This document shows, one piece after another, positions 7,327-8,051 of a DNA stretch of 56,730 nucleotides (its first letter is position 1; each line of letters begins with the position of its first letter). Under the pieces are notes generated by a model, which worked only from the letters and a program-made list of their open reading frames with translations, did not search any database and was not told the DNA's origin. Location: positions 1 to 56,730 of the forward strand of contig JACDFK010000001.1 of the NCBI GenBank assembly GCA_013815795.1, written 5' to 3'. This DNA comes from Candidatus Babelota bacterium. GTDB taxonomy: Bacteria > Babelota > Babeliae > Babelales > Babelaceae. The position numbers and the translations under genes were made by a program.

Positions 7327-8051
7327 ATGAAAAATTTATATTTAATGTTCACGTTTTTGACGGCTATTGTAGGAGGGGTTGTTTCTCAAAGTTACGCTAT
7401 GGATAGCTCACAAAACAAATCAGACCAAATAAAATTATATGTTAGAAATGATACCGCCGGTGCTTATGCTCAAGGGTGGAATATCCAGGTTAACGTAATA
7501 CTAAAAAATGGAAAAAAAAAAAATTCCGAATAGCGCCTGGTGATATACAAATCTTAGGAAAAGCGGTTGAAATAGATAACATTACATATCACTCGTATGG
7601 TACTCTATGGGAAAAAACCTCAAAAGAATGGCCTATCGATTTTAAGAATAAACTTAATCCTGAATCAGATCTTATTTTCTCTATAACAACATGGCTTGGA
7701 AACTGGAGTGTAAATACTGAATATATTACAGCCGGAAAACTACCAACGGGGATAAAGATTTCAGAAGGAGAATTAACGGATGAAAGGGACCCTTGGCAGG
7801 CTTTTCAACAAGCTAAATACTATAAAGATAGCGATCTTATAAAAGCATACCGTATAATGATGAACCTTCCCGTACACTTCACGAAAGATGAATTAAATAC
7901 CACTTATAGATTCCTTTCCTCTAAATACCATCCAGATAAAGCTGTGGGTAATCCAGAAAAAGAACTATTTTATACCGAAATAATGAAACTTCTTGTAAAT
8001 GCACGAGATGCGTTACAAAAAGAGCTCGATAAAAAAGAACGTTCTAAATAA
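7327..8051 (+). CDS. Leader-bearing J-domain protein; frame interrupted at an A12 tract (7512-7523), needing a 13th A or a -1 shift
   Basis: AGGAG precedes the ATG at 7327. Signal-like MKNLYLMFTFLTAIVGGVVSQSYA. Frame 1 stops at 7531-7533 just after the A12 run. The frame one nt back is open from the run to 8051. It ends in a J domain: AYRIMMNLPVHFTKDELNTTYRFLSSKYHPDK...LLVNARDAL. Confidence 0.7.

Follow-up and report, generated by a model that had tools for sequence, protein, structure and literature searches.

A predicted secreted J-domain gene of a Candidatus Babelota bacterium out of frame at an A12 tract: a candidate recent slippage lesion

How should a bacterial gene be read when its frame closes just past a run of twelve adenines and everything behind the run stays open in another frame? 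The question arises at positions 7327-8051 of the stretch of DNA analysed here, 56,730 nt of Candidatus Babelota contig JACDFK010000001.1 (assembly GCA_013815795.1; hereafter the window), where a protein with a predicted secretion leader and a C-terminal J domain is encoded in two pieces that meet at the A12 tract. Such a locus could be a lesion, a switch, a site of frameshifting or an error of assembly. We suggest, with moderate confidence, that it carries a very recent, non-programmed slippage lesion, which leaves the gene in an OFF state or as an incipient pseudogene with leaky rescue. The parts of the gene are as follows.

7310-7316, + strand: Shine-Dalgarno sequence AAAGGAG, 10 nt 5' of the ATG
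7327-7329, + strand: start codon ATG
7327-7533, + strand: zero-frame open reading frame (ORF) as assembled, 68 codons, with the premature TAG at 7531-7533
7512-7523, + strand: A12 homopolymer, the junction of the two frames
7524-8051, + strand: continuation in the -1 frame, 175 codons plus TAA at 8049-8051, encoding the rest of a beta domain, a DPWxxF linker and the J domain

A preliminary description of this DNA, made from its letters alone, had noticed the start behind a good ribosome-binding site, the encounter of the ORF with the A12 tract and the stop that follows, and we read all three in the same places, the premature TAG beginning 8 nt past the tract. The zero frame encodes MKNLYLMFTFLTAIVGGVVSQSYA, then MDSS... 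after the predicted signal-peptide cut, and the block AAGGAGTTTTAT upstream of the ATG is identical in the two intact paralogues. The -1 frame is open already from ~7497, i.e. just 5' of the tract, and remains so to 8051, as had been proposed; one added A (GGA AAA AAA AAA AAA TTC) gives a protein of 241 aa, where a product of ~240 aa had been expected. The peptides IAPGDIQILGK and AVEIDNITYHSYGTLWEK are encoded 3' of the tract. The -1 frame contains KYHPDK, the HPD of which (7929-7937) is H202-P203-D204 of the restored protein. An open frame of 175 codons after the tract is far beyond chance: none of 5000 shuffles kept the -1 frame open over this length, with an average of 13.7 stops per shuffle. 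Internal restart in the -1 frame was considered and rejected as a source of functional product, the first ATG/GTG/TTG lying at 7857 and leading to a 64-aa fragment that starts within the J domain.

A search with the restored protein returned two intact homologues of 235 aa (48-49% identity, 98% coverage), one of them named 'J domain-containing protein [Candidatus Dependentiae bacterium]', which align straight through the break. Because full-length homologues cross the junction with both halves aligned, the two ORFs are one gene, as the preliminary description had supposed. When a family profile was run against 1.84 billion representative proteins, 92 matches were obtained at E<=1e-3, and ~20 of these have the full architecture: a basic/hydrophobic leader with a small residue at its end and, in many cases, M-[DE] next, then a beta-rich domain (NxSxW...YG...TW), the DPWxxF linker and the J domain. 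The window protein conforms to this layout only once one A restores the frame. Every named member of the family comes from Candidatus Dependentiae. For the Der GTPase of the window, all named relatives (57-59% identity) belong to Candidatus Babeliaceae and Dependentiae, other relatives standing at 81-82%, which places the window itself within Dependentiae/Babeliaceae; a pattern scan with Der gave distant matches only. The combination of Sec leader, beta-sandwich, DPWxxF and J domain thus appears to define a coherent, Dependentiae-specific family that is apparently unpublished; no account of such a family came up in a full-text literature search for Dependentiae together with J domain or DnaJ. 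The restored protein is divided into three regions.

7327-7398, + strand: predicted Sec-type signal peptide, residues 1-24 (MKN / LYLMFTFLTAIVGGVV / SQSYA), with a predicted cut before MDSS
7432-7730, + strand: predicted beta-sandwich (AlphaFold2), residues ~36-135 of the restored protein, with the frameshift falling inside it
7836-8045, + strand: J domain, residues ~171-240, including the HPD

The signal peptide was assigned by inspecting the sequence and the family alignment. Its n-region is basic, its h-region spans 16 residues and position -1 is taken by a small residue; 13 family members share the layout ...[AGT]|M[DE]..., and a signal-peptidase-I anatomy is present in every full-length member of the alignment, so that the signal-like leader of the preliminary description can be placed more precisely as Sec-type and conserved across the family. 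An AlphaFold2 model of the restored protein, built on a 17-sequence alignment, has a mean predicted local distance difference test score (pLDDT) of 83. Its beta-sandwich comprises seven to eight strands, mostly with pLDDT >90. Fold matches of this domain in the PDB are weak and generic (transthyretin, TssJ and cytolysin-domain-4-like, E ~1e-3), and its matches in BFVD, to uncharacterised giant-virus proteins, are weak and uninformative.

Taken as a single sequence, the J domain is marginal by Pfam PF00226 (DnaJ), scoring 27.9 bits over residues 179-220 at a gathering cut-off of 27.8. The 17-member family profile, in turn, matches solved J domains in the PDB with E-values from 5.8e-17 (DNAJB8, the best) to 1e-6, E. 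coli DnaJ being found at 2e-10. The model places helices at 171-178, 187-200 and 210-240 (pLDDT 90-98); P203 does not vary in the family, and at least 90% of its members keep H202 and D204. A canonical C-terminal J domain with HPD, as had been called from the letters alone, is therefore borne out by profile, helical model and near-invariant tripeptide. Eukaryotic class B/C proteins (DNAJB8 at 65 bits, DNAJB6, DNAJC5) give the family J domain higher scores than bacterial DnaJ does (44-48 bits, E. coli 44), a pattern that is suggestive of host mimicry or horizontal acquisition, or else of bias in the composition of the PDB.

The A12 run on its own is not remarkable by chance. Among the homopolymers of the 56.7-kb window it is the longest, none of the others exceeding 9 nt, and A12 appeared in 28 of 100 dinucleotide-preserving shuffles of the window. 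With 13 A's the tract would encode G-K-K-K-K-F, part of a turn K60-N-G-K-K-K-K-F67 between strands 53-59 and 64-69 of the AlphaFold2 model. The family has a Lys/Gly-rich turn at this position, the usual loop length of which is matched by the KKKK of A13. The paralogues have only A5 at the same nucleotide position (GAT AAA AAG GGT), which argues that the long A-run is derived in the window lineage. On the simplest account, a Lys-rich hairpin turn came to be written entirely in AAA codons, by which the conserved A5 would have grown to an A13-type tract; replication slippage would then have deleted one A to leave A12, and the ribosome would now stop 8 nt past the tract, after 68 codons.

The frameshift is the sole lesion of the gene, in which all family-invariant residues are kept and the frame is otherwise open. 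Since nothing else in the gene has decayed, the lesion should be very recent. Of the usual marks of a pseudogene, disruption relative to intact homologues is present, and additional lesions or relaxed constraint are not seen; if the gene is a pseudogene, then it is a very young one.

Decay is found elsewhere in the family and next to the gene, as listed here by contig.

L013:2680-3374 (GCA_020064125.1 contig JAITZQ010102073.1): second out-of-frame J-family member, ~40% identical to the window protein
L001:5988-6416: J-family pseudogene, 5'-truncated and with an in-frame stop, 88.5% identical in DNA to an intact copy 2 kb upstream
Window 9793-10433, - strand: decayed WD40-repeat pseudogene in fragments in several frames, just beyond the convergent partner gene described below

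The very fragmented assembly GCA_020064125.1, with contigs numbered into the millions, contains two Dependentiae lineages, the Der proteins of which (contigs L004 and L011) are 100% identical to that of the window in one case and 81% in the other, and the J-family copies on L001, L002 and L013 may belong to either genome. The L013 gene is frameshifted in the -1 direction at the same hairpin turn, at CTAAAGGGGAAAAAG (G4A5), and is otherwise intact, one extra G or A giving a protein of 231 aa. Its A5 is one of just two runs of at least 5 nt in that gene, so that the coincidence of two breaks at one turn is explained reasonably well by a mutational hotspot. The second copy on L001 appears to point to tandem duplication of the cassette followed by decay, and a further copy, on L014 from an unrelated metagenome, is 5'-degraded.

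A real, recent and non-programmed lesion is favoured because the tract is absent in the paralogues, because the family and its neighbour show decay, and because there is no recoding signal. We infer that the DNA truly carries 12 A's, that the lesion is non-adaptive and that its rescue is leaky, all three. Some full-length protein is to be expected from the A12 template; its source would be non-programmed slippage of RNA polymerase along the A-run, or cells of the population that have reverted to A13. This expectation follows from the known behaviour of the polymerase, and it is not evidence of selection at the window locus. Several points weigh on the other side. The absence of decay would fit equally well with continued selection on a slippage-expressed or phase-variable gene, and two paralogues broken at the same turn could mean regulation instead of a mutational hotspot. 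Further to that, A12 rests on two identical assemblies, probably from the same reads, and a miscall in the assembly would likewise appear as one lesion in the most error-prone run. As to function, export past the periplasm and Hsp70 binding are only predicted.

If the tract were an artefact of assembly or sequencing, the true genome would have A13 (or A10 or A16) at this place and the gene would be that of an ordinary, intact secreted J-domain protein, a reading which we consider unlikely. It draws on the sole defect being a 1-nt difference in the length of the contig's longest homopolymer, with the remainder of the gene pristine. The exact 68-aa product is also encoded, with A12, on GCA_020064125.1 contig JAITZQ013810238.1, the only contig returned by an exact look-up of both gene fragments and the neighbouring 298-aa protein; over 7188 nt, however, its identity to the window is 100%, and the same reads probably underlie both, so that the second A12 assembly is probably not independent. 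Look-ups of Der and WD40 also gave Logan contigs of 2.4-6.4 kb (SRR11719867), in which the symbiont is seemingly at low coverage; these contigs end at 7384 and ~9836, short of the tract. Against an artefact, 18 runs of 8-9 nt sit within intact long ORFs of the window, and the window agrees at 100% over 6433 nt with a Logan contig assembled independently from short reads, which together argue that homopolymers are not systematically miscalled. No intact 241-aa version is present in a collection of 5.8 billion protein clusters, and a variable-gap DNA pattern across the tract found no tract-length variants (0 matches) in JGI metagenomes. Finally, the same-sample paralogue on L013 is frameshifted at the short G4A5, where a miscall is unlikely, and real frameshifts therefore occur in the family.

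Simple-sequence contingency loci occur in host-adapted Neisseria, Haemophilus, Campylobacter and Helicobacter. The tract could similarly be an adaptive switch, i.e. a contingency locus with ON/OFF phase variation, a transcriptional-slippage site that sets a low effector dose, or both, and this too we hold to be improbable. As in contingency loci, the homopolymer lies in the 5' part, here the 5' third, of an ORF for an exported, host-facing protein, and two of the three phases end early; the tract is long enough for high slippage rates, the gene is intact apart from it, and another family copy, that on L013, has lost its frame in the same direction at this turn. Unlike in contingency loci, no tract-length polymorphism was observed and the contig has no repertoire of such tracts, this being its only run of at least 10 nt in 56.7 kb, and an A12 run arises by chance in 28% of the shuffles described above. 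The intact paralogues do without the tract and the shift is not conserved, the G4A5 of L013 is too short for efficient switching or slippage of RNA polymerase, the truncated copies and the adjoining pseudogene show plain decay, and the 68-aa zero-frame product has no evident function.

Two published systems serve as precedents for rescue by slippage. In Citrobacter rodentium tssM1 an A11 tract gives rise to transcripts with 10-15 A's and to ~20% frame restoration (PMC4256274). The window gene resembles tssM1, and tssM of Yersinia pseudotuberculosis, in that a long coding-strand A-run stands just before a premature stop, the downstream frame holds a conserved C-terminal domain, and a one-base change in the mRNA restores full length. 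For tssM1, however, it was demonstrated that slippage takes place, that it yields ~20% and that both products are needed, and a second genus has the same arrangement (PMC4256274), whereas the homologues of the window gene are in frame without the tract and its short product consists of the leader and 44 residues only. The second precedent is the rescue of frameshifts at poly(A) tracts that is reported for the insect endosymbionts Buchnera and Blochmannia (PMC5009743; PMC3017870). The analogy with AT-rich endosymbionts drawn in the preliminary description is partly apt. It stands as far as this is a host-restricted, AT-biased bacterium with a frameshift in the poly(A) of an otherwise intact gene, which polymerase infidelity could rescue. 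It fails in that those genomes have many tracts, some conserved between species, in essential genes, whereas the window is at ~38% GC and has a single run of at least 10 nt, in an accessory paralogue within a variable island. Of the features expected of a slippage-dependent gene, a run of at least 9 A/T at the junction of two conserved frames is present; a conserved out-of-frame arrangement is not, the closest homologues being in frame with A5, which is a weak negative as the set holds no true orthologue. Such an orthologue was found neither in a genome-contig scan (with a 3-sequence alignment, which also missed the window's own genome) nor in a metagenome-contig scan.

A more specific form of the adaptive idea would have slippage at a conserved A-run in one turn switch individual paralogues ON/OFF or set their dose; they would be exported eukaryote-like J co-chaperones that commandeer the Hsp70 of a protist. 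It would explain why two paralogues from the same sample are out of frame at one spot and otherwise intact, and we regard it as a long shot. Programmed -1 ribosomal frameshifting on A AAA AAA in the manner of dnaX or IS3, with a short and a long product from A12 mRNA, is highly improbable: the tract does contain perfect X XXY YYZ heptamers, the shift needed is -1, and L013 has G AAA AAG at the equivalent site and also needs -1, but there is no downstream hairpin or pseudoknot (folding at the window locus and at L013 is that of shuffles, with z = 0.2 to 0.7 and -0.2 to 0.7), no internal Shine-Dalgarno sequence is seen at suitable spacing, the arrangement is not conserved in the family, and the tssM1 precedent is one of RNA-polymerase slippage, likewise without the usual signals of ribosomal frameshifting (PMC4256274).

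We return to the slippage lesion as the favoured reading, and to the setting in which the gene lies. The features that surround it are the following.

Window 7197-7243, unstranded: AT-only inverted repeat with 16-nt perfect arms (7197-7212 / 7228-7243) and a 15-nt spacer, 84 nt 5' of the ATG
Window 8058-8089, unstranded: GC-rich hairpin of 12 pairs that separates the J gene from the convergent 345-aa gene
Window 8194-9231, - strand: convergent partner gene, 345 aa, intact, with a hydrophobic N-terminus
L001:4624-5682, L001:6546-7577, L002:3044-4102 and L002:4550-5605: paralogues of the partner gene, ~345-352 aa
Window 10473-12056: intact WD40 gene, 527 aa, paralogous to the WD40 pseudogene, with a signal-peptide-like leader

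The inverted repeat had been described as one of 11 bp about 90 nt upstream; it exists, and it is larger: its perfect arms measure 16 nt and, at 91% complementarity, reach 23 nt. Shuffling the intergenic segment 500 times produced a perfect inverted repeat of at least 11 nt on 11 occasions. The L001 paralogue is preceded by no inverted repeat of at least 8 nt, and the L002 and L013 copies by short ones only. The repeat may be a putative operator or a promoter-associated element, and the hairpin at 8058-8089 is likely a bidirectional terminator.

The contig is at ~38% GC and the cassette sits in a stretch of lower GC (32-33% vs 37-41% elsewhere), part of a variable island at ~6250-12060 between ribosomal protein S2 and thioredoxin reductase (TrxB). 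Besides the J gene and its 345-aa partner, the island contains a MazE-like gene together with the WD40 pseudogene and the WD40 gene. On a sister-species contig (L010, ENA ERZ25039529 contig_47392; Der 81% identical) S2 and TrxB occur together with no J/345-aa cassette, and unrelated small ORFs stand in place of the island within the stretch compared, L010:2655-7888. This assembly looks noisy, as if with indel errors, thioredoxin reductase being in three ORFs and S2 in two (2655-3858, 6770-7888), and is unsuitable as a frameshift reference. The partner protein is 45-47% identical to its four paralogues and has no sequence match in Pfam, NCBIfam or the PDB; invariant motifs of its family are SPFFDFNAY, a DIV..AG..HCW-type block and ETP..LP.FCT. 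The cassette of J gene and partner recurs in two other contigs, L001 and L002, and the partner moves and duplicates along with the J gene. The best reading, as judged from these sequences, is that the J family is accessory and would be duplicating and decaying within a variable island.

Other observations concern the neighbouring genes. The MazE/AbrB-type antitoxin gene of the island (6542-6790, - strand) is followed only by a 52-aa ORF without a family match (6387-6545, - strand), and it may be an orphan antitoxin or have a degraded toxin. Ribosomal protein S2 (5231-6250, - strand) has, past its Pfam domain (residues 21-236), a C-terminal extension of ~100 residues rich in Q, E, A, S, P and G. 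A fragment at ~26653-27033 (+ strand) resembles, by eye only, the N-terminal region of the 527-aa WD40 gene. Fic-domain, leucine-rich repeat and WD40 genes flank the locus (13414-14508, 14900-17131 and 428-1498, all on the - strand), beside housekeeping genes, and genes of these kinds are typical of the interaction of Dependentiae with eukaryotes. Near the contig end, at 55065-55552 (+ strand) and 55756-56046 (- strand), a small pair of ribbon-helix-helix antitoxin and RelE-ParE-like toxin and a transposase-like fragment can be recognised by eye.

What, then, would the protein do when in frame? Outside the cytoplasm, in the periplasm, there is to our knowledge neither an Hsp70 partner nor ATP. 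Because its J domain would have no Hsp70 partner there, proteins of this family are good candidates for host-chaperone manipulation. The in-frame protein would leave the cytoplasm by Sec and then reach the host via further secretion or outer-membrane vesicles; its J domain would engage a eukaryotic Hsp70, and its beta-sandwich would presumably set location or client. A host-Hsp70-directed co-chaperone is a plausible role and the best functional guess. In C. destructans, a member of the Dependentiae, signal peptides are found on 44% of coding sequences, and Sec together with outer-membrane vesicles is the proposed effector route (PMC6561590); HopI1 of Pseudomonas syringae is a J-domain effector that binds and stimulates host Hsp70 (PMC8150971). 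The effector idea would fit both. Like HopI1, the window protein has a bacterial C-terminal J domain with HPD, and HopI1 is sent out of the bacterium, as is predicted here. The likeness is one of the J domain: HopI1 travels by type III secretion and differs in its N-terminal and repeat region, whereas the window family has a Sec leader and a beta-sandwich, and on none of the features compared do we count the window protein as a HopI1-family member.

A different function, which we think quite unlikely, is that the N-terminus is a membrane anchor and that the J domain serves the bacterium's own DnaK, as in DjlA, and is not host-directed. A hydrophobic N-terminus with a C-terminal J domain is indeed what DjlA and other membrane-anchored J proteins have, there is weak NCBIfam similarity to DjlA (E=0.009) and to other bacterial J proteins, and in the window we identified no dedicated effector secretion system, type III secretion being represented by neither a signal nor a system. 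The predicted topology is, however, the opposite of that of DjlA: the N-terminus is basic, the h-region is short (12-18 residues) and M[DE] comes after a conserved small residue at -1, a signal-peptidase-I anatomy by which the leader would be cleaved and the J domain would lie outside the cytoplasm. Outside the J domain there is no significant similarity to DjlA (NCBIfam 15.7 bits vs a cut-off of 162), and the J domain itself has its best scores with the eukaryotic class B/C, as given above.

Bacterial genes break, or are mis-assembled, most often through the slip of one base in a homopolymer, and the frameshift as such is ordinary. The more useful product of this analysis is a defined Dependentiae family of secreted J-domain proteins with a recurrent break point. 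Dependentiae are a poorly understood phylum of protist parasites, and the family is relevant to host-chaperone manipulation. If the A-run were after all a maintained switch, it would be a first instance in Dependentiae of effector expression that is phase-variable or dosed by slippage.

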